Source: a virus (lineage: Duplodnaviria; Caudoviricetes). From it: a stretch of 31,079 bases of DNA. Where the stretch lies: IMG/VR virus record IMGVR_UViG_3300046811_000086, positions 1 to 31,079 of that record; one strand, 5' to 3'. Numbering within the stretch: position 1 is the first letter of the stretch; each line of letters begins with the position of its first letter. The notes below the pieces were generated by a model that was given only the letters and a program-made list of their open reading frames with translations, was not told the origin of the DNA and did not search any database. The position numbers and the translations under genes were made by a program. Of the stretch, positions 1 to 29,852 are shown piece by piece.

Positions 1-842
1 AACGCGATATCGTCGTCGGCGCCGAACGCCGCGGCGTCCGCCGGCACGCGCGTCTGGAAAATCTCCGCGAACGGAATCGGGGCATCGGTGCGCAGGCGGA
101 TCAACGACCGCGCCGTCTCGAAGCGCGAGGGCTCACCCGAGAAAAAGTCGATCAACGATTTCCCGATGGCCGGCGTGAGCGACGCCTCGCCGCATTCAAT
201 CGCCGCCCACAGATCCTCAAGCGTGCCGTAGGTTCCGAGCAACTTCGCCGCGGTCACGGCGCCAATCCGATCCGCGCCCTGGACGTTGTCGCTTTTGTCG
301 CCGACGAGGGTTAAAAAATCGCAGAACTGAGTCGGGTGGACCCCGAACTTTTCGACCACTGCCGCCGCGTCATAGGTGCGTTCGGTGGCGGTGCCGAGCG
401 CCGGCCGAAAGACGTGCACGCGGTCGCAGACGAGCTGTAGTAAATCTTTGTCGGCCGAGATGATCAGCACGTCGGCGCCGTCGCTGTCGGGCGGCTGCGC
501 GGCGGCGACCGCCGTCGCGATCAAGTCGTCCGCTTCAAAACCGCGCGCCGCCCAGATCGGAAACCCGTCACCGCGCAGGATGTCGATCGCGACGTTGCCC
601 TGGTGATACAAGGCCGCATCGCGTTCGGCGGGTCGGTTCGCTTTGTAGTCCGTGCTGATCTCCGCGCGAAACGATTTGCCGCTATCACAACAAATCGCGA
701 CATGCGGATGGGCGCTCGCGAGCGCGCGAATTTTCGCGACGACCTGCGTGCTCGTGGCATTCGGGTCGGAGTCCGTGCTCGCGAGCGCCCACGTCGGATG
801 CAGGATCGAACTGAAATCAAGCAACACCAAGCGATCACTCAT
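1..842 (-). CDS. 5'-3' exonuclease (PolA N-terminal / FEN-like); 3' end runs off the window
   Basis: Manually translated from ATG at 842 (absent from the ORF track because no stop lies in the window): MSDRLVLLDFSSILHP...DYKANRP...GFEADDLIAT...IISADKDLLQLV...LVGDKSDNVQGADRIGAVTAAKLL. Contains the YKANR, EADD, DKD and GDxSDN-H3TH motifs. Confidence 0.92.
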   Translation of the reverse strand, partial: MSDRLVLLDFSSILHPTWALASTDSDPNATSTQVVAKIRALASAHPHVAICCDSGKSFRAEISTDYKANRPAERDAALYHQGNVAIDILRGDGFPIWAARGFEADDLIATAVAAAQPPDSDGADVLIISADKDLLQLVCDRVHVFRPALGTATERTYDAAAVVEKFGVHPTQFCDFLTLVGDKSDNVQGADRIGAVTAAKLLGTYGTLEDLWAAIECGEASLTPAIGKSLIDFFSGEPSRFETARSLIRLRTDAPIPFAEIFQTRVPADAAAFGADDDIA

Positions 843-848
843 AGGTCA

Positions 849-1302
849 ATCCAATCGAGCCACACCTTGCCGTGCCCTTCCATAGCGAGCCTTACCTCGC
901 CTCGCCATGCCGCGCCCAACCCCGCCTCACCTACTCCATGCCCTACCAGTCCCGAGCCATCCCCGCCACATCCAGCCTTGCCGTGCCGAGCCATACCCAA
1001 CCTCACCCGACCAGACCGCGCCGCCGCCACACCGGGCCACACCCGACCACGCCCAACAACTCCACATCCGGCCTTACCCCGCCTGACCAAAACTCACCAC
1101 GCCACGCCGCGCCAGACCGCGCCCAACCGGACCGCACCCGACATCGGCCCGCCTCGCCATTCCAGGGCACGCCATGCCAAAGCTCGCCAAGGCCGTGCCA
1201 CGCCTGACCACTCAGCGCCCGTCCAGACCTCGCCCCACCCTCACCCCGCCCTGCCCCGCCGCACCTAGCCGAACCACGGCTAACCTTGCCGAACCAGACC
1301 TG
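849..1302 (-). repeat. Pentameric GGY-NN repeat array 1 (about 90 units), putative non-coding guide-RNA array downstream of the Cas7-like gene
   Basis: The plus strand parses as RCC-nn units, e.g. gcc ac acc tt gcc gt gcc ct. In-phase runs: 849-933, 935-954, 965-1024, 1026-1190 (33 units), 1192-1241 and 1243-1302, separated by 1-nt slips. The triplet is near-constant and the dinucleotide is variable. Strand is inferred from operon direction. Confidence 0.9.
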
Positions 1303-1306
1303 ATGA

Positions 1307-1954
1307 CTAATCCGGCACGACGATCTCGAACTGTTGAATCGCGAACCGTCCGTATGTCGGCCTGAAATCCGCCAGCCCGATCAACCGCCCCGCATTCACA
1401 AGCACATCCTGCAAGGCATCGGGTGGGATGTATTCCGGCAGATTCACCATCAACTGAATTTCCACGGACCATCCCGTGCGCATCGCGGGCCGGACGCGCG
1501 TCACACCGTTGCGCTGAATCATCACGCGCCGCCGATCTTCGTAATCCCAATCGCGGGCACCGAGCGAGGCCAGCGGCGTCAGGCACACAACGCCCGCCTT
1601 AAAGAGATCCATCGCGCTCTTCCTGGGTGACCGCGGATCCTGACGAAACTTCGCGGCATGGATCACCGCCTGCCGCAGATACTCACCAGGAAGCGCCAAT
1701 TCGCCGGCGTCGTCGCGATAGACGTAACTCTCGAGGTCATCGGACTTCTTCGCCTTCGATCCCTTCGCGGCCCGCGCCTTCGTCGCAACGCCTTCAACAT
1801 TCCAGCGATGGAAGAGGAGATCAGCGACGCCGACGATGCGCGCGGACGCCACATACGGGAGCGCATATTCGATGGCCGCCTTCCCGCCGTTCGTCGTCAT
1901 CGGACCAATCGCAATCACTTCGCTTCGTGCTACGCTGCTCGCAGTCGGTGTCAT
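1307..1954 (-). CDS. Solo Cas7/RAMP-like RNA-binding protein (Vipr-like), 215 aa
   Basis: RAMP hallmarks by eye: N-terminal strand RIVGVADLLFH, LALPGEYLRQAV (compare the Cas7/Csm3 YIPGSSLKGALR motif), RVRP..GWSVEIQL and a C-terminal Gly-rich loop AGRLIGLADFRPTYGRF. AGGAG RBS lies upstream of ATG 1954. Confidence 0.75.
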   Translation of the reverse strand: MTPTASSVARSEVIAIGPMTTNGGKAAIEYALPYVASARIVGVADLLFHRWNVEGVATKARAAKGSKAKKSDDLESYVYRDDAGELALPGEYLRQAVIHAAKFRQDPRSPRKSAMDLFKAGVVCLTPLASLGARDWDYEDRRRVMIQRNGVTRVRPAMRTGWSVEIQLMVNLPEYIPPDALQDVLVNAGRLIGLADFRPTYGRFAIQQFEIVVPD

Positions 1955-1981
1955 GTGCTCTCCTCATGTGATGCTGTTGAG

Positions 1982-2006
1982 AGGGTCGCGTGCTGAGCGC
2001 GGCCCT
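1982..2006. other. Stem-loop between array 2 and the Cas7-like gene RBS
   Basis: AGGGTCGCG (1982-1990) pairs with CGCGGCCCT (1998-2006): 9-bp stem with one G-T pair (C-A on the minus strand) and a 7-nt loop. Confidence 0.5.
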
Positions 2007-2013
2007 TTCCCCA

Positions 2014-2204
2014 ATCCAACCTCGCCGAACCAAACCAAACCCGACCTGTCCTAGCCTTACCCGACCTCACCCTGCCATACCGTGCCGCGCCTCGCCCCAC
2101 CGGACCCAAACCTCGCCCTACCACTACCACGCCATGCCTCGCATTGCCGCGCCATGCCCTCACCCGGCCAAACCCTGCCTCGCCCCGCCCGGCCTCGCCC
2201 CGCC
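2014..2204 (-). repeat. Pentameric GGY-NN repeat array 2 (about 38 units), putative guide RNA upstream of the Cas7-like gene
   Basis: Plus strand: atc ca acc tc gcc ga acc aa acc aa acc cg acc tg tcc ta gcc tt ... gcc tc gcc cc gcc. In-phase runs: 2014-2108 (19 units), 2110-2124, 2126-2160 and 2162-2204. Confidence 0.9.
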
Positions 2205-2232
2205 GCTGAGCTCTGAATCTCTGTCTACGTCC

Positions 2233-2460
2233 TCATGGCCGATCGAACTCCGGAATATCAATCGACCGATTGGCGTAGAGGTGATCGCTTAAAACGTGAA
2301 ACGTGATCACGGTCGCTGCCCGCGGATCCCCGCGGAGCAGGCCAGCCGCGAGCAGCTTGCTGATGACGTCACTGCTGATGAACTTGATCCGCTCGCCGCG
2401 TTCGCCGGCGCGGGCGTGGTCGTGCGCTTCCGCCTGGCGGGTTTCGTCTTCCTGCCTCAC
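2233..2460 (-). CDS. Hypothetical early protein, 75 aa
   Basis: GTG start overlaps the stop of 2457-2663 (GTGA coupling). Array 2 decodes in this ORF's codon frame to a similar peptide, which independently supports the frame. Confidence 0.65.
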   Translation of the reverse strand: MRQEDETRQAEAHDHARAGERGERIKFISSDVISKLLAAGLLRGDPRAATVITFHVLSDHLYANRSIDIPEFDRP

Positions 2461-2663
2461 GACGGCACCTCCGAGAACGTCAGGTCCGGATGGCGCTCGG
2501 CCAGGTGCTGCCGATAGAGCTCGCGGAGGAAGATGGCGATTTCAATCCCGTTGTCGCCGAAGTGGATCGCCGCCCAGTCGCAGTCCGGACAGCGAATCGA
2601 GGCCTGGACGGCGGCCCGTGGCGCGACGCCGGGAAACGTCAACAGGCCGGCGACCAGCTTCAT
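2457..2663 (-). CDS. Small putative Zn-binding protein (CxxC...HxxxxH), 68 aa
   Basis: CPDC and HLAERH motifs; start and stop overlap both neighbours (ATGA/GTGA). Confidence 0.6.
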   Translation of the reverse strand: MKLVAGLLTFPGVAPRAAVQASIRCPDCDWAAIHFGDNGIEIAIFLRELYRQHLAERHPDLTFSEVPS

Positions 2664-2893
2664 GGCTTCCCCCGCCCGACGAGGCGCAGGCGCTCGGCGA
2701 CCGGCTGGCCGGACTGGATGCGCGCGGCTTCGCGGCGCTTATCGTCGGCGGCGTCGCGCCGGCGCCCCGCGGCGGCCTGCATCGTCTCGTAGTCGGCGGG
2801 CGTCGCTTTCTGGTGCGTCTGCCGTGGCGTGCGAATCAGCCGGTCGATGAGGCCGTCGTGCTGCACCCAGCGGCGCCAGAACTGGAACGTCAT
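2660..2893 (-). CDS. Hypothetical protein, 77 aa (MTFQFWRRW...)
   Basis: 3' part of track ORF 2660..3274. ATG at 2893 overlaps the stop of the upstream Zn-ribbon gene (ATGA). Confidence 0.6.
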   Translation of the reverse strand: MTFQFWRRWVQHDGLIDRLIRTPRQTHQKATPADYETMQAAAGRRRDAADDKRREAARIQSGQPVAERLRLVGRGKP

Positions 2894-3018
2894 GGTTCGC
2901 GCACCTGCACGTCGGTGTTGCCGCAGCGCGGACACTCGGGACTGGCGGTGGGCGACACCGCCCACTTGTGGCCGCAGTCCAGACAGACGACCTTGACGCG
3001 CACGCGGACGCGCGTCAT
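2890..3018 (-). CDS. Small zinc-ribbon protein, 42 aa (not in the ORF track)
   Basis: Manual translation MTRVRVRVKVVCLDCGHKWAVSPTASPECPRCGNTDVQVREP*, with two CxxC pairs and ATGA coupling at both ends. Confidence 0.7.
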   Translation of the reverse strand: MTRVRVRVKVVCLDCGHKWAVSPTASPECPRCGNTDVQVREP

Positions 3019-3296
3019 GCCTGCCGCCGCGTCGTGGCTTTCCGGCCGAAGACCGGCTCCTCGATCCGCTCACCCTGCAAGTAGCGGTAGACGAGCGTCC
3101 CGGAGAAACAGTGTTTGCCGATGGGATGCTGGACCTTGAAGCGATCGAATTCGCCCGTGGCTTGCCCCCGCGCAAAGCGGGAATTGCCGAACTGGAAGAG
3201 CGCGCCCATGTCGGCCGGGCCCAGCAGGAGCCCCGCCTTGGCCCGCGCGAGCGCGGCCTGCTGCGCCTCGTCATCCAGCCGCCAAGTGGTCTTCAC
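3015..3296 (-). CDS. Hypothetical protein, possibly excisionase/AlpA-like DNA-binding protein, 93 aa
   Basis: Directly downstream of the cro-like gene with GTGA coupling. The layout loosely resembles a MerR-like winged helix; function is inferred mainly from position. Confidence 0.5.
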   Translation of the reverse strand: MKTTWRLDDEAQQAALARAKAGLLLGPADMGALFQFGNSRFARGQATGEFDRFKVQHPIGKHCFSGTLVYRYLQGERIEEPVFGRKATTRRQA

Positions 3297-3532
3297 GCCG
3301 ACCTCTTCGCCGCTTCGGCCACGAGGCGACTGGGCTTCGATTCGAAGTCGACCGGCATCAGTTCTTCCGGCTCGAGATTCAACGCCCGCGCCAAGCGCAC
3401 GACGCTCTCATAGGACGCCGTTTGCCGTTCTCCGCGCTCTAGGCGCGAAATCAGCGTGACGTCGACGCCAGATTTCGTCGCGAGTTGTGTCTGCGTCAGA
3501 CCCGCGATCCGCCGGTATTTTTTGAGTTCCAT
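3293..3532 (-). CDS. Cro-like XRE helix-turn-helix regulator, 79 aa
   Basis: LKKYRRIAGLTQTQLATKSGVDVTLISRLERGER is a typical HTH_3 pattern; divergent from the repressor. Confidence 0.9.
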   Translation of the reverse strand: MELKKYRRIAGLTQTQLATKSGVDVTLISRLERGERQTASYESVVRLARALNLEPEELMPVDFESKPSRLVAEAAKRSA

Positions 3533-3637
3533 AGTTGCGCTTCTAGCTTAACTATTGAGCGCAACTCTAGCGCTGCTATTTGCGTTTTGTCAATACCTCA
3601 TGTATCGTCAGGCGCGTATCAAGCGTAAGTAGTTGCG
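3533..3637. promoter_or_regulatory. Lysis/lysogeny switch region: leftward sigma70-type promoter and operator-like repeats
   Basis: Minus strand TTGACA (3593-3588), 18 bp spacer, TAGAGT (3569-3564). A 9-bp inverted repeat AGTTGCGCT (3533-3541) / AGCGCAACT (3558-3566) overlaps the -10. TAGTTGCG recurs at 3630-3637. The region is locally AT-rich. Confidence 0.7.
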
Positions 3638-3689
3638 TATGCTAAGACTTGCTGTTGCATCCGAGGCTGCCGATCTGAAATATAGCGGT

Positions 3690-4151
3690 ATGGATCCCGC
3701 TGTGATTGGCGCCCGACTGCGGGCGTTGCGTCAAAAACTCAAGTTGACGCAAGCGGCGCTTGGCAAACTCGCAGGCGTCGCGCCGAATACGATCCGCGGC
3801 CTCGAGACGGCGTCGATGGAGACCCGTCGCGAAAAGTATCTGCAGATCGTCGCAGCCCTGGGCACCACGCCCGCGATGGTGGAACGCGCCGACGAACCGA
3901 TCAGTCCTGACGATCCGCGCCTAGAGGGGTTACCGGACGAGGCCTTGGAAATCGCGCAGGCCTACACCAGGGCGCCCACCCGCATGCGACTCCGCGTCGA
4001 ACGCTTGCTGCTGATGCAAGAGAGCGATGCCGGCGTGGCATTACTCGACCGCATCGAGCAGCTCACTGCGCACCGCCAAGAAACGCTGTTGCAGTTCTTA
4101 GCCCAGCACGAAGCAGCCCAGCGCACCGAAGAGGGGAAAAAGCGTCGATAG
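3690..4151 (+). CDS. CI-like XRE repressor (start ATG 3690 preferred; track start 3633)
   Basis: IGARLRALRQKLKLTQAALGKLAGVAPNTIRGLET is an HTH_3. The C-terminus is helical and shows no S24 peptidase motif. Confidence 0.85.
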   Translation: MDPAVIGARLRALRQKLKLTQAALGKLAGVAPNTIRGLETASMETRREKYLQIVAALGTTPAMVERADEPISPDDPRLEGLPDEALEIAQAYTRAPTRMRLRVERLLLMQESDAGVALLDRIEQLTAHRQETLLQFLAQHEAAQRTEEGKKRR

Positions 4152-4192
4152 GATCATCTGTGAATCCACGGTCATCAAACGCGGAGGTTGGC

Positions 4193-4546
4193 ATGCTGAA
4201 GAGTCACGTCGTTGAGTTCCACCGCTTGGCCACAATTCCTGCGCCCAAGCCAGCCAAAGCGATGCTCCGTGCCGATGTGCAGATCAGCGTGCAGCGGTCG
4301 ATCGACAAACTTCCCGTGCTCGGGGAGCGCAATCCAGACGCGGCGCTCTTAATTGAGCGCAGCATTGACGATTTCATGCCCCAGCCCGACGACAATGGCG
4401 GCCAGGGCCAGCCCGTGAACGCCGTCATCGAGATCGAATGTATTCGCCGCATTCAAGCCGACTTGCAGCGCGTGGCCGATGAGCAGTATCGCTGCCTCGT
4501 CGCCATGCTCCGGGATATGTCTGGCGATCTGTCGGCGGCGTCGTAA
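4193..4546 (+). CDS. Hypothetical protein in the repressor-integrase operon
   Basis: GGAGG RBS at 4183-4187 precedes ATG 4193 (track start 4160). Confidence 0.6.
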   Translation: MLKSHVVEFHRLATIPAPKPAKAMLRADVQISVQRSIDKLPVLGERNPDAALLIERSIDDFMPQPDDNGGQGQPVNAVIEIECIRRIQADLQRVADEQYRCLVAMLRDMSGDLSAAS

Positions 4547-4551
4547 TCACC

Positions 4552-4806
4552 GTGCGATCCCTTGACCACGAGGCGGCGCAGGCCTGCGCCCAGCGGCTCA
4601 TTACGCTCGTTGAGCTCTTACTCCGCACCAGGCCGATGGTGGTGCTTGAGATTGAACGCACGGTGCAGCGGATCGTCACGAACGACGTGCGCCAGCAAAT
4701 CGCAGAACGGTTGCAACGCTTCAGCGCGGACGACGTGCGGATCGTGGAAGCCGTGACGGCCCATCTCGATGAACGGCAGGCGGCTCTGAACCCAGAGGAC
4801 CCATGA
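4552..4806 (+). CDS. Hypothetical protein, 84 aa
   Basis: Stop overlaps the integrase ATG (ATGA); shares a motif with 4193-4546. Confidence 0.6.
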   Translation: MRSLDHEAAQACAQRLITLVELLLRTRPMVVLEIERTVQRIVTNDVRQQIAERLQRFSADDVRIVEAVTAHLDERQAALNPEDP

Positions 4807-6029
4807 AACAGAAGCGCACCCGCATCGCCCCGAACATCTACCGCTATTCCGACGGCCGCTATGAAGTGCTCGTGATGGCGGCGGGCCGCGTGGCGCCGCC
4901 GACGCGGTTCCCCGCTGACACCCCACTGAAGCAGATCCGACAGTGGGTGGACGCAGCCCGACAACGGCTGACACGAGAGGCGCGCGACCTGCACCGCGCC
5001 GATTTCGATCGCGATCAAGCGCCCACCCGCACGGGCACCCTCCGCACGACAGCGCCCGATTACTTCGCACAGATCGCTGGGCGCCCGAGCACGGCGGCCG
5101 ATACCTCACACATGCGCGCGTGGTTTGAGGTCCGCGTTGATGGCGTGCTGCTCGGGGATCTCCCGCTCGCCGCGTGGACGACGGGCCATGTGAACAAAGC
5201 GATCGGGCAATGGCAGACCGCACCGTCACCGCACGCCATCCGCCGCGTGCGCATCACCCGCTACGCGCGGAAGGGCCAAGCGATCGAGCACCACGAGCGC
5301 CGCGCGCCGGCGACGAGTGGCCGCATCGTCTCGGCGCTGACCATTCGGCATCGCTGCCGCGTTTTACAGGACTTCTTTCGAACCACGGACGGGAAGAACG
5401 CTGCGACGCCGGTCGATGACGCTAAGGTGCCGGCACGCCACCAGAATCCCCCGCCCACGGTGCCGGTCGAGCTCGTGCGGGACGTGCTCGAGCGCTTAAA
5501 CACGATCGATCCGCAGACGTTCGCGCGCTTCTACGTCGCCGCGACCACTGGGCAGCGGCCCGTGCAGGTCGGCCGCGCCCAGCCGGATGATCTGCGCTTC
5601 GACGGCCGGCGCGGCGTCTGGCTGGTGCGCAATGCGAAAGGCGAACCCGCCCACTCCATCGTCTTGAACCCGTCGCAGTTGGCCGCCTGGGAAGCGTTCA
5701 TCGCCGCCGATGCCTGGGGCGTGTTCGACACCACGCACTACGGGAACGTGATCCACCGGGCGGGCTGGCCCCACGGCATCCGCCCCTATGCGGTGCGACA
5801 TTCGATCGCCCGTGCCGCCTTGCAGCGCGGCGCGGGTCTCGGCGACGTCCAAGCGTTACTCGGGCACCGGGATCCGAACACCACGCGCGCGACCTACGCG
5901 CCGTTCCAAGTCGAAGAGCAACAGAGCATCAGCGATCGACTCGGGTCGTATCTCGCGGACGTGCTCAAGCCGCGCCTCGTCCGGTCGCCGGGGGCAAAAA
6001 CGAGGGGCAAAAAGGAGATCGGGGAATAG
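4803..6029 (+). CDS. int: Tyrosine recombinase / phage integrase, 408 aa
   Basis: Catalytic motifs TTGQR (R), RNAKG (K), YAVRH (HxxR with H replaced by Y) and LLGHRDPNTTRATY (H...Y); adjacent to a tRNA-derived att core. Confidence 0.9.
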   Translation: MKQKRTRIAPNIYRYSDGRYEVLVMAAGRVAPPTRFPADTPLKQIRQWVDAARQRLTREARDLHRADFDRDQAPTRTGTLRTTAPDYFAQIAGRPSTAADTSHMRAWFEVRVDGVLLGDLPLAAWTTGHVNKAIGQWQTAPSPHAIRRVRITRYARKGQAIEHHERRAPATSGRIVSALTIRHRCRVLQDFFRTTDGKNAATPVDDAKVPARHQNPPPTVPVELVRDVLERLNTIDPQTFARFYVAATTGQRPVQVGRAQPDDLRFDGRRGVWLVRNAKGEPAHSIVLNPSQLAAWEAFIAADAWGVFDTTHYGNVIHRAGWPHGIRPYAVRHSIARAALQRGAGLGDVQALLGHRDPNTTRATYAPFQVEEQQSISDRLGSYLADVLKPRLVRSPGAKTRGKKEIGE

Positions 6030-23269: not shown

Positions 23270-24241
23270 TTACGCGCGACGACGACCGTTGCGGTAGTAG
23301 AACTGTTCGTGCGCCGCAAGCGAGGCGTCATCACCCGGCGGTTCGTCACCACCGCGCATCGGACCTGTCCGCACCGGATTAGGCGGGCGTGGGACCTGAG
23401 ATGTCATCACGGGCGCAGTAGCCGATCCGGTGCCGGCAGCTACACTGCGCGTGGAGGGAGACGGCGCAGCGAGGTGCTGCGAAATGAGCGCGAGCGTTTC
23501 GAGTTGATCGAGCGGCGACTGCGCGAGCACGCGCGGGAGCTCGCCGGGAAATTTTTGGAAGTAGTAGAGGACGTCGGCGCCGGTGCGGTGTTCCCAGACC
23601 CAGCGGTCGATTAGCGAGCCTTGCGGAATCGCGGAGGGCGCATTGAGCGCGACGTCGTTGAAATCGGGATACCGTTCCTGCGCGCTCGCCACCTTCTGTT
23701 GGAACGTCTGCGCGAACTGGCGCTCGGCCTGCTGCTGCTGCTGCTGCTGTTCGCGGCGCCGGTAGGTCCAGTCGGCCATCGCTTCCGCGTGCCGCTCGAC
23801 GGCCAGGTTGTAGTCCTCGTCGGGCTTCAACTGGTCGATGAAGCCCTGGAGCCTAGGCGCCTGCGTCGGCGCATTGGCGGGTGGCGCGGCGGGCCGCGGG
23901 GCGGGTGCGGGCGCCGGCGCGGCGCGGCGCAGCGACTCGAGTTCGGCTTCGCGCTCGCGCAGGCGCTTGGTTAATTCGTTGATGCGGGGGGCGTCGGCCG
24001 GCGTGGCGGCGTGGCTTTTCGCGCGCCGGCCCTTGAAGCGGCCCTGTTCATCGCGCTCGCCCGCCGCCGGCTCGGCGCCGTCTGCGCTTGAGGTCGCGGA
24101 CGGCTCTGGAGCGTCGGCGGCGGGCGCGTCACGGTCGTTCTGCCCGTGGTATTGGGCTTCGTGGTCGCTCAGCGACAGTTCGGCCGGTTCGGCGGGGGGA
24201 CTGCCGGCGTCAGCGCTGGGAACCGGGAGCTCGTCGGCCAC
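23270..24241 (-). CDS. Scaffolding protein, 323 aa
   Basis: Directly upstream of the coat gene; acidic/Pro-rich N-terminus, ERDEQGRF, RINELTKRLRE coiled coil, ERYPDFNDV and a basic C-terminal tail. Confidence 0.75.
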   Translation of the reverse strand: MADELPVPSADAGSPPAEPAELSLSDHEAQYHGQNDRDAPAADAPEPSATSSADGAEPAAGERDEQGRFKGRRAKSHAATPADAPRINELTKRLREREAELESLRRAAPAPAPAPRPAAPPANAPTQAPRLQGFIDQLKPDEDYNLAVERHAEAMADWTYRRREQQQQQQQAERQFAQTFQQKVASAQERYPDFNDVALNAPSAIPQGSLIDRWVWEHRTGADVLYYFQKFPGELPRVLAQSPLDQLETLALISQHLAAPSPSTRSVAAGTGSATAPVMTSQVPRPPNPVRTGPMRGGDEPPGDDASLAAHEQFYYRNGRRRA

Positions 24242-24732
24242 GGATGGCCTGTAGTCTGCGCCCAGCGCGGCGGTAGTGTCAAGGATTTGACGGCGTCAAG
24301 AGATTGACGAGTCGCGATGGCGTGCTCGGCCATCCTGATCGTGATGGCCAGATTGTGGAGCAAATCGTTCCGAAAGGGAACGACACGTCGGATTGCTCGA
24401 ACAGACGCTTCACCGAGACGCGGGATGTTCAGCAATTGGCTGTCGAAGAGGACGGCAACATCGTCGACGGTGATAACCCCTGCCTTGCGTAGGGCACGCA
24501 CAATTCGCGTCGCGAGCTGGGGCGGGTCGATAGATGCAAAGCCGGTCTCGATCAGGACACCGTCCGGGTTCCGCGCCTTGGTGGCGGCACTCAGCAATCG
24601 CTTTACGTCCGTGAGGTCAGCCAACCGCCTCTCGCGCCGCCGCGGCACATCGACCACTGGCCCCGTCTCCGTCCCGAGCAGCGCCCGCGTCTCCTGATAG
24701 GCCCGATGCTGCGCCGCCGTTAGCTTCTTCAT
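24169..24732 (-). CDS. Protein with an RNA polymerase alpha-CTD-like (HhH) domain
   Basis: LATRIVRALRKAGVITVDDVAVLFDSQLLNIPRLGEASVRAIRRVV aligns by eye with the RpoA CTD pattern LSVRS.NCLK.AGI.TV.DL....E.DLL.I.NLG.KS..EI. The 3' end overlaps the scaffold start. Confidence 0.65.
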   Translation of the reverse strand: MKKLTAAQHRAYQETRALLGTETGPVVDVPRRRERRLADLTDVKRLLSAATKARNPDGVLIETGFASIDPPQLATRIVRALRKAGVITVDDVAVLFDSQLLNIPRLGEASVRAIRRVVPFRNDLLHNLAITIRMAEHAIATRQSLDAVKSLTLPPRWAQTTGHPWPTSSRFPALTPAVPPPNRPNCR

Positions 24733-25456: not shown

Positions 25457-26053
25457 TCACACCAGCAACTGCGCGCCGAGTTGCGCCGCGAGCTCGGAGA
25501 GGTCCGGCGGCATCAGACGCCAGTCGGCGCGGCACTTAAGGCAGCGTGTGATTTCGGATGCGCCAAGCGATAGCGCGGTGCCCTGCTCGTAAGCACGAAG
25601 ACAGGCTCGACAATACGAGTGACGCCCATTGAAACGGGCGCGCTGCATCGGAAAAGCTTTGAGCGGCTTCACAGCGTGACATCGCGAGCACAAAGCATCC
25701 GTCCACGGATTCCCACCAGCCGCTTGGATTCTCATCCGCGCATGCAGCTGCATGTGATAGGCCTGATCCTGACAAATAACCAACGGAGCATCATCTCGGC
25801 GCGAGCCGTCCGCGTGATGGACAATCGCGCCGGGAGGTAATAGTTTCCCAAGGGCCTTCTCGGCTCGCTGGACGTGAAGAAAGACCCGTCGGCCACGATT
25901 CGTTTGTCGATACCATGCGACGACAGGCTGTCGATGATGCCCTTTGATGAACCGGCGTGGTTGACCTAGCACGAGTCCCCGGCGCGGATCGTTCTGCGGT
26001 GAAATCCTCGTCCGACCACCGCAGCCACACTCACAATATCCAGGCTCGATCAT
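25457..26053 (-). CDS. HNH-like endonuclease with Zn-binding motifs, 198 aa
   Basis: N-terminal CECGCG, central HVQRAEKALGKLLPPGAIVHHADGSRRDD..LVIC.DQAYHMQLH and C-terminal CSRC...CRAC; ATG immediately follows the portal stop. Confidence 0.7.
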   Translation of the reverse strand: MIEPGYCECGCGGRTRISPQNDPRRGLVLGQPRRFIKGHHRQPVVAWYRQTNRGRRVFLHVQRAEKALGKLLPPGAIVHHADGSRRDDAPLVICQDQAYHMQLHARMRIQAAGGNPWTDALCSRCHAVKPLKAFPMQRARFNGRHSYCRACLRAYEQGTALSLGASEITRCLKCRADWRLMPPDLSELAAQLGAQLLV

Positions 26054-28896: not shown

Positions 28897-29147
28897 CGCG
28901 TCGGCGCCTTGACGACGGCGCGTTTCTCTGTAATGCCGCCATACCGCTGCGAAATGATGCACACCCTCGCAGACATATCAGGCGTCAGATAACCGGGCGT
29001 CAACGGCGCGCACTCGACCTCGCCATTCGCGTTGAGACGGATCACCCTGAAGCGCCTCGGGCTGCCATTCGTCTCACGCAGCCACGGAGGCGCATCAGCG
29101 TTGGTGATGCTGATCACGTCACTGACCTGAAAAGCTGGCGCCATCAT
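28893..29147 (-). CDS. Hypothetical protein (MMAPAFQVSDVI...)
   Basis: ATGA couplings; 3' part of track ORF 28893..29228. Confidence 0.5.
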   Translation of the reverse strand: MMAPAFQVSDVISITNADAPPWLRETNGSPRRFRVIRLNANGEVECAPLTPGYLTPDMSARVCIISQRYGGITEKRAVVKAPTR

Positions 29148-29434
29148 CCGCGCCTCGCTTTCATGCGCGCGGCCCGCAACGCCGCGACGTCCTGCGCCGT
29201 GGGGATCTGATCGGCGGCAGTGTCCCACTGCTGCACGAATCGGATCGCGAAGCCGCTGGCTTCTCGCTGTTTGACTTGGTTCACGGTGTCTTGAATCAGC
29301 GCGCGTGTCGTTGCAGCGATGACCTCTGGTGATTCACCGTTGTCGCGCACTTCTGCGAGCAGTTCATCGTCGCTCAGACGCTCAAGATGATCAGCGAGAG
29401 CTTCGAACACACGGTTTATACGCTGCTCGGTCAT
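29144..29434 (-). CDS. Hypothetical protein (MTEQRINRVFEAL...)
   Basis: ATG 29434 overlaps the upstream stop; 3' part of track ORF 29144..29791. Confidence 0.55.
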   Translation of the reverse strand: MTEQRINRVFEALADHLERLSDDELLAEVRDNGESPEVIAATTRALIQDTVNQVKQREASGFAIRFVQQWDTAADQIPTAQDVAALRAARMKARRG

Positions 29435-29619
29435 TGCTTGGCTTTCAGCCGCGCCGCGTAGCTGCTCGCGTGCTCCGGTTTCCCCTTCATCGGCCCGCTG
29501 GCGAAATCGGAGAGTTGCGTTTTCGTCATCGCCTGCCGCAGCTGCTTCGCTTTCGGAAACGTCGCGCCGTGTTCGGCCGCGGCGAACAGACGTTGTTGGG
29601 CCTTGCTGGTGGACGGCAT
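29431..29619 (-). CDS. DUF3008-like small basic protein, 62 aa
   Basis: MPSTSKAQQRLFAAA...AKQLRQAMTKTQLSDFAS resembles the MPAKSKAQQ...M....L.DFAS pattern. Confidence 0.65.
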   Translation of the reverse strand: MPSTSKAQQRLFAAAEHGATFPKAKQLRQAMTKTQLSDFASGPMKGKPEHASSYAARLKAKQ

Positions 29620-29852
29620 CAGGGTGTCTCCGTGGTCGGCGGCAGCGGCAGGGTGTCGGTGACGCGCGCAAACGCCGTGCGATCGAACGCCAGACCGTCC
29701 GGCGCCGCCGGTCGGTCAAACACGCCGGCGTCATTCGCCTCCAACGCCCAGCGTAAAAACGCCGCGCGTGCGTGTCGGCTGTCCATCGCACGCAGCGCCA
29801 GGCTGATGGTCATTAAGGCGCGCACTTCGGGCGAGTGTTTTCGCCGGGGCAT
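29619..29852 (-). CDS. Hypothetical protein (MPRRKHSPEV...)
   Basis: TAATG/TGATG couplings with neighbours. Confidence 0.55.
   Translation of the reverse strand: MPRRKHSPEVRALMTISLALRAMDSRHARAAFLRWALEANDAGVFDRPAAPDGLAFDRTAFARVTDTLPLPPTTETP

Follow-up and report, generated by a model that had tools for sequence, protein, structure and literature searches.

The DNA analysed here (hereafter the window, 31,079 nucleotides of the IMG/VR virus record IMGVR_UViG_3300046811_000086) carries an integrase gene, two divergent HTH genes and genes for a P22-like portal and coat. The repressor-like HTH gene diverging from the Cro-like one, together with the integrase, indicates a temperate phage. On the minus strand, a 75-aa ORF (2233-2460) is followed by array 2, a 215-aa ORF (1307-1954), array 1 and a gene for a 5'-3' exonuclease, and the 75-aa gene, the arrays and vipr share one strand and one promoter-like site. 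We infer that the 75-aa gene, referred to below as the target gene, belongs to a leftward operon headed by the Cro-like gene, with recombination genes after it. The same locus, identical to that of the window, is present in the records G007 (42,973 bases, spanning the entire window), L016 and L125. No Rfam match was found within positions 700-3700. The features are as follows:

1-842, minus strand: gene for a 5'-3' exonuclease, truncated at the edge of the window; the array 1 last guide has its footprint on the own gene at 795-836
851-1305, minus strand: array 1, about 90 GGY/NN units, 69 of 88 canonical
857-926, minus strand: last guide, made up of the final 14 units of array 1; antisense to the beginning of genes of the exonuclease family encoded downstream
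1307-1954, minus strand: vipr gene, encoding a RAMP protein of 215 aa that matches SUSP1 Vipr
1983-2005, minus strand: GC hairpin of 8 bp lying 3' of array 2, conserved in relatives; candidate vrRNA 3' tail
2006-2055, minus strand: repeat-like 3' stretch of array 2, likely scaffold rather than guide, common to the arrays of G008, L120 and L035, which have other guides
2056-2122, minus strand: central part of array 2 (approximately units 17-29), which probably forms a second guide; no target match above shuffles
2123-2209, minus strand: units 0-16 of array 2, whose 17 NN dinucleotides make up its first guide; in the skip-one code they spell codons 18-34 of the gene family upstream, in sense orientation, the skipped base being the wobble base
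2233-2460, minus strand: 75-aa gene, own allele of the target family, conserved in related phages; no Pfam or PHROG family
2359-2409, minus strand: footprint of the first guide on the own gene, matching at 12/12 in units 0-5 and at 11/22 in units 6-16
3293-3532, minus strand: Cro-like HTH gene, putative head of the leftward operon (target gene, arrays, vipr), with a sigma-70-like site at 3564-3593
3633-6029, plus strand: divergent repressor-like HTH gene (3633-4151) and integrase gene (4803-6029)

The 215-aa protein matches the Vipr of SUSP1 (PDB 36pp) with an E-value of 2.1e-7, its residues R155, D196 and R198 lying opposite SUSP1 R138, D177 and R179 and being invariant across 65 homologues. 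Csm3 and Cas7-like subunits were the top Foldseek matches of its model (pLDDT 79); a fold predicted from the single sequence was unusable (pLDDT 33). GGY/NN arrays lie on the vipr strand on both sides of the gene, and between the 75-aa gene, vipr and the exonuclease gene only arrays were found, the vap gene being absent. The cassette therefore consists of vipr and arrays only, with no site-specific nuclease. The Pfam scan of the 33 window ORFs returned no Cas family, and no repeat-spacer family was present among the 20 largest repeat families listed. On the own genes, both end guides stay below 80% of NN bases, the first guide reaching 23/34 and the last guide 20/28. The locus is a VIPR system, that is, an RNA-guided gene silencer, and as judged from sequence comparison it appears to be a vap-less variant with a real and well-supported guide-target pair. 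Both the system and its code were published in April 2026: the discovery preprint (10.64898/2026.04.26.720920) describes the GGY/NN repeats, the skip of one nucleotide, the alignment of the skipped base with the codon wobble position and, for SUSP1, binding of dsDNA. It also reports repression whichever strand is targeted, the targeting of competing phages and the absence of self-hits at 80%. The skip-one code seen in the window is therefore not new.

Array 2 consists of 39 units, which are five bases long except for those of 6 nt at 2164, 2128 and 2112. The scaffold of the array is intact: GGY is canonical in 35 of the 37 units after the start of the first guide. The footprint of the first guide covers 17 units and crosses a 6-nt unit, while published vrRNAs have 9-16 repeats; the limits given here are predicted ones within a 39-unit array with a single tail. 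The hairpin behind the array is kept in 8/8 aligned relatives, with one of its 8 pairs broken in the window and one compensatory change in L123, and its folding alone is not better than that of shuffles (z -0.46). No tail was recognised after array 1.

According to the original prediction, the NN dinucleotides of array 2, read with one base skipped after each pair, decode to a homologue of the protein encoded immediately upstream. The minus-strand NN series from 2206 and codons 18-35 of the ORF are exactly as it gave them, the first GC is correctly said to lack a preceding GGY, and the first six dinucleotides are indeed identical to the own ORF (12/12 bases from 2409). Beyond these six units the agreement falls to 11/22, resulting in 23/34 over 17 units and 24/36 over 18. 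In a window-wide local scan (both strands, any frame) the own-gene match was not the top one (p=0.79, 400 shuffles); an in-frame test against the 224 window ORFs gave p=0.01 for 17-18 units (1000 shuffles), and the own gene as the sole, post hoc comparison gave p=0.003. Taken alone, the own-gene match is marginal.

The evidence for a target is provided by the relatives of this gene. Of 20 candidate proteins, 19 belong to the family of ORF 2233-2460, namely the ORF itself and 18 homologues at 55-85% identity, and their consensus, AGERGERLRxIANDIVS, equals the decoded peptide. Six of the 18 homologous proteins carry 16/17 of the decoded residues, and the window's own protein carries the fewest (10/17). 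The decoded sequence is accordingly that of a homologue and not of the own gene, as had been proposed, since the relatives' alleles hold decoded residues which the own gene lacks. At the nucleotide level, 20 distinct non-self footprints were obtained from 27 loci after removal of self copies and duplicates. The first 17 units match these with a mean of 27.55/34 and with at least 28 in 13/20, as compared with 23 for the own allele, which fits worse than 19/20 relatives, only L042 scoring lower. The family mean was reached by 0/3000 shuffles, the best of which scored 22.65 when any 17 units, offset and strand were allowed. The match to homologues thus lies far above the shuffled controls.

The match depends on the skip of one nucleotide, which had also been predicted, the family mean dropping from 27.55 to 14.25, 14.2 and 15.65 for skips of 0, 2 and 3. 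Units 6-16, i.e. the part that matches the own gene poorly, reach 15.75/22 in the family versus 11 in the own allele, a value found in 0/20000 random draws. The skipped base coincides with the codon wobble position, modal base frequencies being 0.86, 0.91 and 0.67 at codon positions 1, 2 and 3. A scan of 684 kb produced 20 diagonals of at least 18/20 for skip 1 and none for skips 0 and 2. The highest score, 30/34, is that of the L028-type footprint, with 29/34 for G001 and 25/34 for G008, and no allele matches all 17 units. In G001 the agreement is complete over units 0-9 (20/20), even at the rare codons AGA and TTA, but 9/14 over units 10-16, where L024, L028 and L030 score 14/14. The best-matching alleles thus change at the 6-nt unit at 2164, which may reflect two joined pieces, one unsampled allele or an escape on the 3' side in G001.

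In the window, the mismatches of the own allele are confined to the 3' two-thirds of the guide, and in G008, too, they occur on the 3' side. Among conserved columns, the own gene deviates in 4/13 within the footprint versus 7/37 elsewhere, and P0015 deviates equally; since the changes are not clearly enriched in the footprint, they lend no support to escape by selection. L023 and the complete records G002 and G005 contain the target gene and show no vipr match. For the 75-aa protein itself, Pfam, PHROG and Atlas provided no lead (best Atlas 0.80), and no homologues were found in GTDB genomes, hence no pointer to a host.

Other parts of the arrays were compared in the same manner. Two exact-seed scans with units 17-37 of array 2 returned 11 and 11 loci, 0 of them extending past the seed, and no target above shuffles was found in 0.7-1.2 Mb of related loci. 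A seed scan with units 6-13 returned 34 loci, none extending or homologous; that with units 0-7 returned 15 loci, including 2 true homologues. The proposed continuation of the decoded peptide, in which the LPGD...LSD of the array was set against the GD-to-LSD spacing of the ORF, is due to chance: 14/36 bases agree (p=0.96), and the 19 proteins are compatible with it at 3 to 7 of 18 residues. Its final units fall within the 3' stretch that is common to arrays with other guides and lies ahead of the conserved hairpin. We also rejected the window's own vipr as a target of array 1: units 17-27 match its antisense (window 1715-1747, plus strand) at 18/22, and the comparison with G008 gives 18/20, both below the shuffle maximum.

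Better fits to relatives than to self recur in related cassettes. The Vipr of G008 is 98.6% identical to that of the window and is accompanied by a different upstream array, the first 17 units of which match the end of the same 75-aa gene family through to the stop codon (mean 26.4 and at most 30/34, with at least 28 in 7/19; score 43.7 against a maximum of 28.9 in 60 shuffles). G008's own gene and the window gene reach 19/34 and 20/34, respectively, and both have a one-codon deletion inside the footprint. The last guide of the window (14 units), antisense to the exonuclease start, matches L023 at 24/28 and its own gene at 20/28, the other 23 non-self starts scoring 13 to 22, so that at least 80% is reached in 1/24 non-self exonuclease starts. 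The last guide of G008, on the sense strand, matches the L023 exonuclease at 24/28 versus 18/28 for its own. L023, in which the target and exonuclease genes are both present with no VIPR between them, ranks among the best matches of four end guides, from the window and G008. The dsDNA target proposed in the original prediction fits these findings, the first guide of the window being sense, its last guide antisense and SUSP1 VIPR binding dsDNA (10.64898/2026.04.26.720920).

G001 shares 9.3 kb with the window; some 100 bases after its target gene comes a vipr that belongs to another clade (26% over 94 aa). Its last guide has 13/14 dinucleotides in common with that of the window and stands beside a very similar exonuclease start; one module of last guide and exonuclease start is therefore joined to two unrelated Vipr clades. 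Relatives are also matched better than self by the guides of L035 (26/30 vs 18/30, first guide antisense), L159 (24/28 vs 21/28) and L119 (20/24 vs 17/24). In a test set beforehand, the L129 guide agreed by hand count with 15/16 residues of a single distant homologue and with 9/16 of its own protein; for the neighbour gene of L158, the same preset test found no relatives in the homologue search. Two end guides match their own neighbour genes above 80%, namely L158:2144 (26/32) and L138:3722 (20/24). Such self-matches of 81-83% are unexpected under pure self-avoidance, and these two guides are candidates for self-regulation.

Whether guides resemble their flanks in general was assessed in two sets. 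The viral set comprised 44 Vipr loci, of which 32 had arrays, 28 remained after removal of duplicates and 27 after exclusion of L155 (array remnants); 17 and 24 had a non-vipr flank upstream and downstream, respectively. The first 16 units best match the own upstream 450 bases in 7/17, on the sense strand (p=5e-5), and the last 16 units match the own downstream flank in 5/24, antisense (p=2.5e-4). Sense guides upstream and antisense guides downstream both point inward (p=1.5e-4 and 0.0023). The signal is limited to the array ends and the closest 450 bases: internal blocks, other skips and flanks shifted by 450 bases were null, and one flank shifted by 900 bases gave p=0.026.

The held-out set, analysed with identical settings, consisted of 73 GTDB loci, 63 of them with arrays, 41 and 40 after filtering and 22 and 23 without similar flanks. 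The match of last units to the downstream flank recurred (4/23, p=1e-4); this time, though, it was sense (p=5e-5) and not antisense (p=0.84), and the match of first units to the upstream flank was weak (3/22, p=0.07). Other skips were null; crossed controls were nominally positive (p=0.044 and 0.013), as was a shifted upstream flank (p=0.012). Many held-out arrays are short, so that their first and last units overlap. We conclude that the resemblance of guides to nearby own genes is general and that a side-specific placement is plausible; a fixed strand geometry is not supported, and the inward pairing of guides, positive in the viral set, was rejected as a rule after failing in the held-out set.

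As the first guide fits related alleles well and the own copy poorly, it is likely to silence the early genes of rivals while sparing its own. We consider it probable that the first 17 repeats of array 2 are a VIPR guide against the neighbour gene as related phages write it, acting on this gene and the early operon in rivals, with the own allele predicted to escape. Following the VIPR papers, Vipr subunits would coat the guide RNA, the NN pairs would invade dsDNA from the RNA 3' side and binding would block transcription. When a related phage or prophage is present in the same cell, the complex would occupy the rival's Cro-headed early operon, and the downstream block would affect genes for recombination and replication as well as, in several rivals, the vipr that they carry. 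The rival vipr starts about 100 bases after the target gene in G001 and one gene later in G006, L039, L041 and L031, so that binding would be polar on such genes. The own allele would escape via its mismatches on the guide 3' side, where SUSP1 pairing starts, the long-array case being an extrapolation from this. The guide may be kept adjoining the resistant allele because recombination with relatives then rarely separates the pair; the simplest explanation of their adjacency is linkage where recombination is frequent, to which the shared module of guide and exonuclease also points. A wider idea, which we put forward as a tentative possibility, is that VIPR cassettes serve as allele drives among sibling phages, programmed by RNA and free of any nuclease: the guide would travel with the sole allele it cannot attack, suppress all others in co-infection and spread with its flanks through the phage population.

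Several other explanations need to be weighed against this. In a process akin to homing, the end guides would bracket the empty site of relatives, Vipr would stall transcription or replication there and recombination would copy in the cassette with its flanking alleles, as with the free-standing homing endonucleases of T4, which cut neighbouring genes of relatives (PMC2988022). The rank of L023, where both genes are present without VIPR, among the best matches of four end guides and the inward-pointing end guides of the 17 and 24 viral cassettes would suit such a process, but the held-out last guides are sense, the G008 last guide is sense and the L035 first guide antisense, the cassette has no nuclease gene, and SUSP1 VIPR represses, with cutting not reported; we regard homing as unlikely. 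Autoregulation, whereby weak binding of the guide to the own upstream gene would damp the operon that makes Vipr, the better fit of relatives reflecting an older own allele, is decidedly unlikely in our view. It would explain the 12/12 match in the first six units, the arrangement of gene, arrays and vipr behind one promoter-like site and the self-matches of L158 and L138, yet the own allele is worse than 19/20 relatives, its mismatches are on the 3' side, where SUSP1 VIPR pairing begins according to the structure preprint (10.64898/2026.04.26.720927), and in G008 one codon is missing from the own gene within the stretch matched by its guide.

The guide could also be a neutral, decaying relic of acquisition, array ends gaining repeats written from nearby DNA whether useful or not. 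The restriction of the viral-set signal to array ends and the nearest 450 bases, as well as the switch of alleles at the 6-nt unit (G001 to L024, L028 and L030), are compatible with this, but repeats copied from the own flank would be expected to match self best, and a relative was better in 7/7 cases with a homologue at hand; moreover the scaffold is intact (35/37 GGY), making a relic very improbable. As for a chance likeness of a G-rich repeat to a GC-rich gene, it could be entertained for the own-gene match with its window-wide p=0.79, but it is refuted by the family match (0/3000 and 0/20000 controls), the diagonals confined to skip 1 in the 684 kb and the guide scores of related loci against shuffles, and we give it practically no credence.

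In comparison with the VIPR systems of SUSP1 and a Pseudomonas fulva prophage, the window shares a RAMP-fold Vipr (RRM) with G-loop and thumb residues, GGY/NN repeats on both sides of vipr, a 1-nt skip that falls on the wobble base, targets that lie in competing phages and may be on either strand, self-matches below 80% and a structured 3' tail. It differs from them in that it has no vap, a gene that is typical rather than universal, its arrays are long (39 and about 90 units), with occasional 6-nt units, no internal tails and a simple hairpin tail, and its predicted target is the allele of a cassette neighbour in close relatives and not a satellite or a lysis-lysogeny regulator. A third preprint (10.64898/2026.10.15.759431) reports guides that match the vrRNAs of rivals more closely than their own, and a requirement of SUSP1 for vap1 during infection; the lack of vap in the window counts against the silencing proposed here. 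Those solo vrRNAs against rivals' vipr and vrRNAs resemble the window in the better fit to relatives, read there as autoimmunity avoidance, in the wobble alignment and in the conflict between related phages. The self/non-self contrast is drawn there for vrRNA-targeting guides, and the window differs in having ordinary flanking genes as targets, a complete cassette and a guide adjoining its own allele. A fourth preprint (10.64898/2026.10.21.760802) is concerned with the computational recovery of VIPR arrays.

The fold predicted for Vipr resembles the backbone RAMPs of Class 1 CRISPR (Csm3/Cas7), from which the window differs in having no cas operon or repeat-spacer array and a non-contiguous code. 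With the T4 endonucleases SegF, SegG and MobE, which are responsible for marker exclusion (PMC2988022), it shares a logic, not membership: an intergenic element acts on the relatives' neighbouring conserved gene in co-infection. As with free-standing homing endonucleases, the target lies in the neighbour gene of relatives without the element (L023, G002, G005). The T4 enzymes cut DNA with a specificity coded in protein, whereas the specificity of the window lies in RNA, there is no nuclease, and gene conversion would be hypothetical. Targeting of, or linkage to, neighbour alleles was not found in the main text of 10.64898/2026.04.26.720920 or in the parts covered of the other preprints, although the supplementary target tables of these papers may hold cases; the linkage of a guide with a resistant neighbour allele is probably undescribed.

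For a Vipr clade remote from the two that have been characterised, these results supply natural target alleles that can be tested, and with a matched resistant allele from the same genome, self/non-self discrimination without a PAM becomes directly measurable. If guides are generally kept beside a resistant allele, this would explain array order, would allow targets to be predicted from cassette neighbours and would bear on the acquisition and retention of VIPR guides.

Some further observations were made. On the minus strand of the window, weak Pfam matches below curated cut-offs were obtained at 24169-24732 (RNA polymerase alpha C-terminal domain), 25457-26053 (HNH_3) and 29144-29791 (LEM). 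VIPR cassettes of two other Vipr clades occupy nearly the same locus in the related phages L021 (5329-7645), L026 (5961-8105), L039 and L041; they have a vap-like gene and arrays with interspersed 4-nt units, like the staggered arrays of the preprint. In the cassettes of related phages, a phrog_15946 gene adjoins vipr. The arrays L132:2251-2473 and L123:3154-3717, from more distant Vipr loci, match genes of G002, G004 or G005 (28/34 and 31/40), which suggests, on the basis of sequence, a host range in common with these phages. Guides directly 3' of vipr at L133:3114 and L158:3097 match the vipr of other phages at 20/22 to 23/26, as is already in print.
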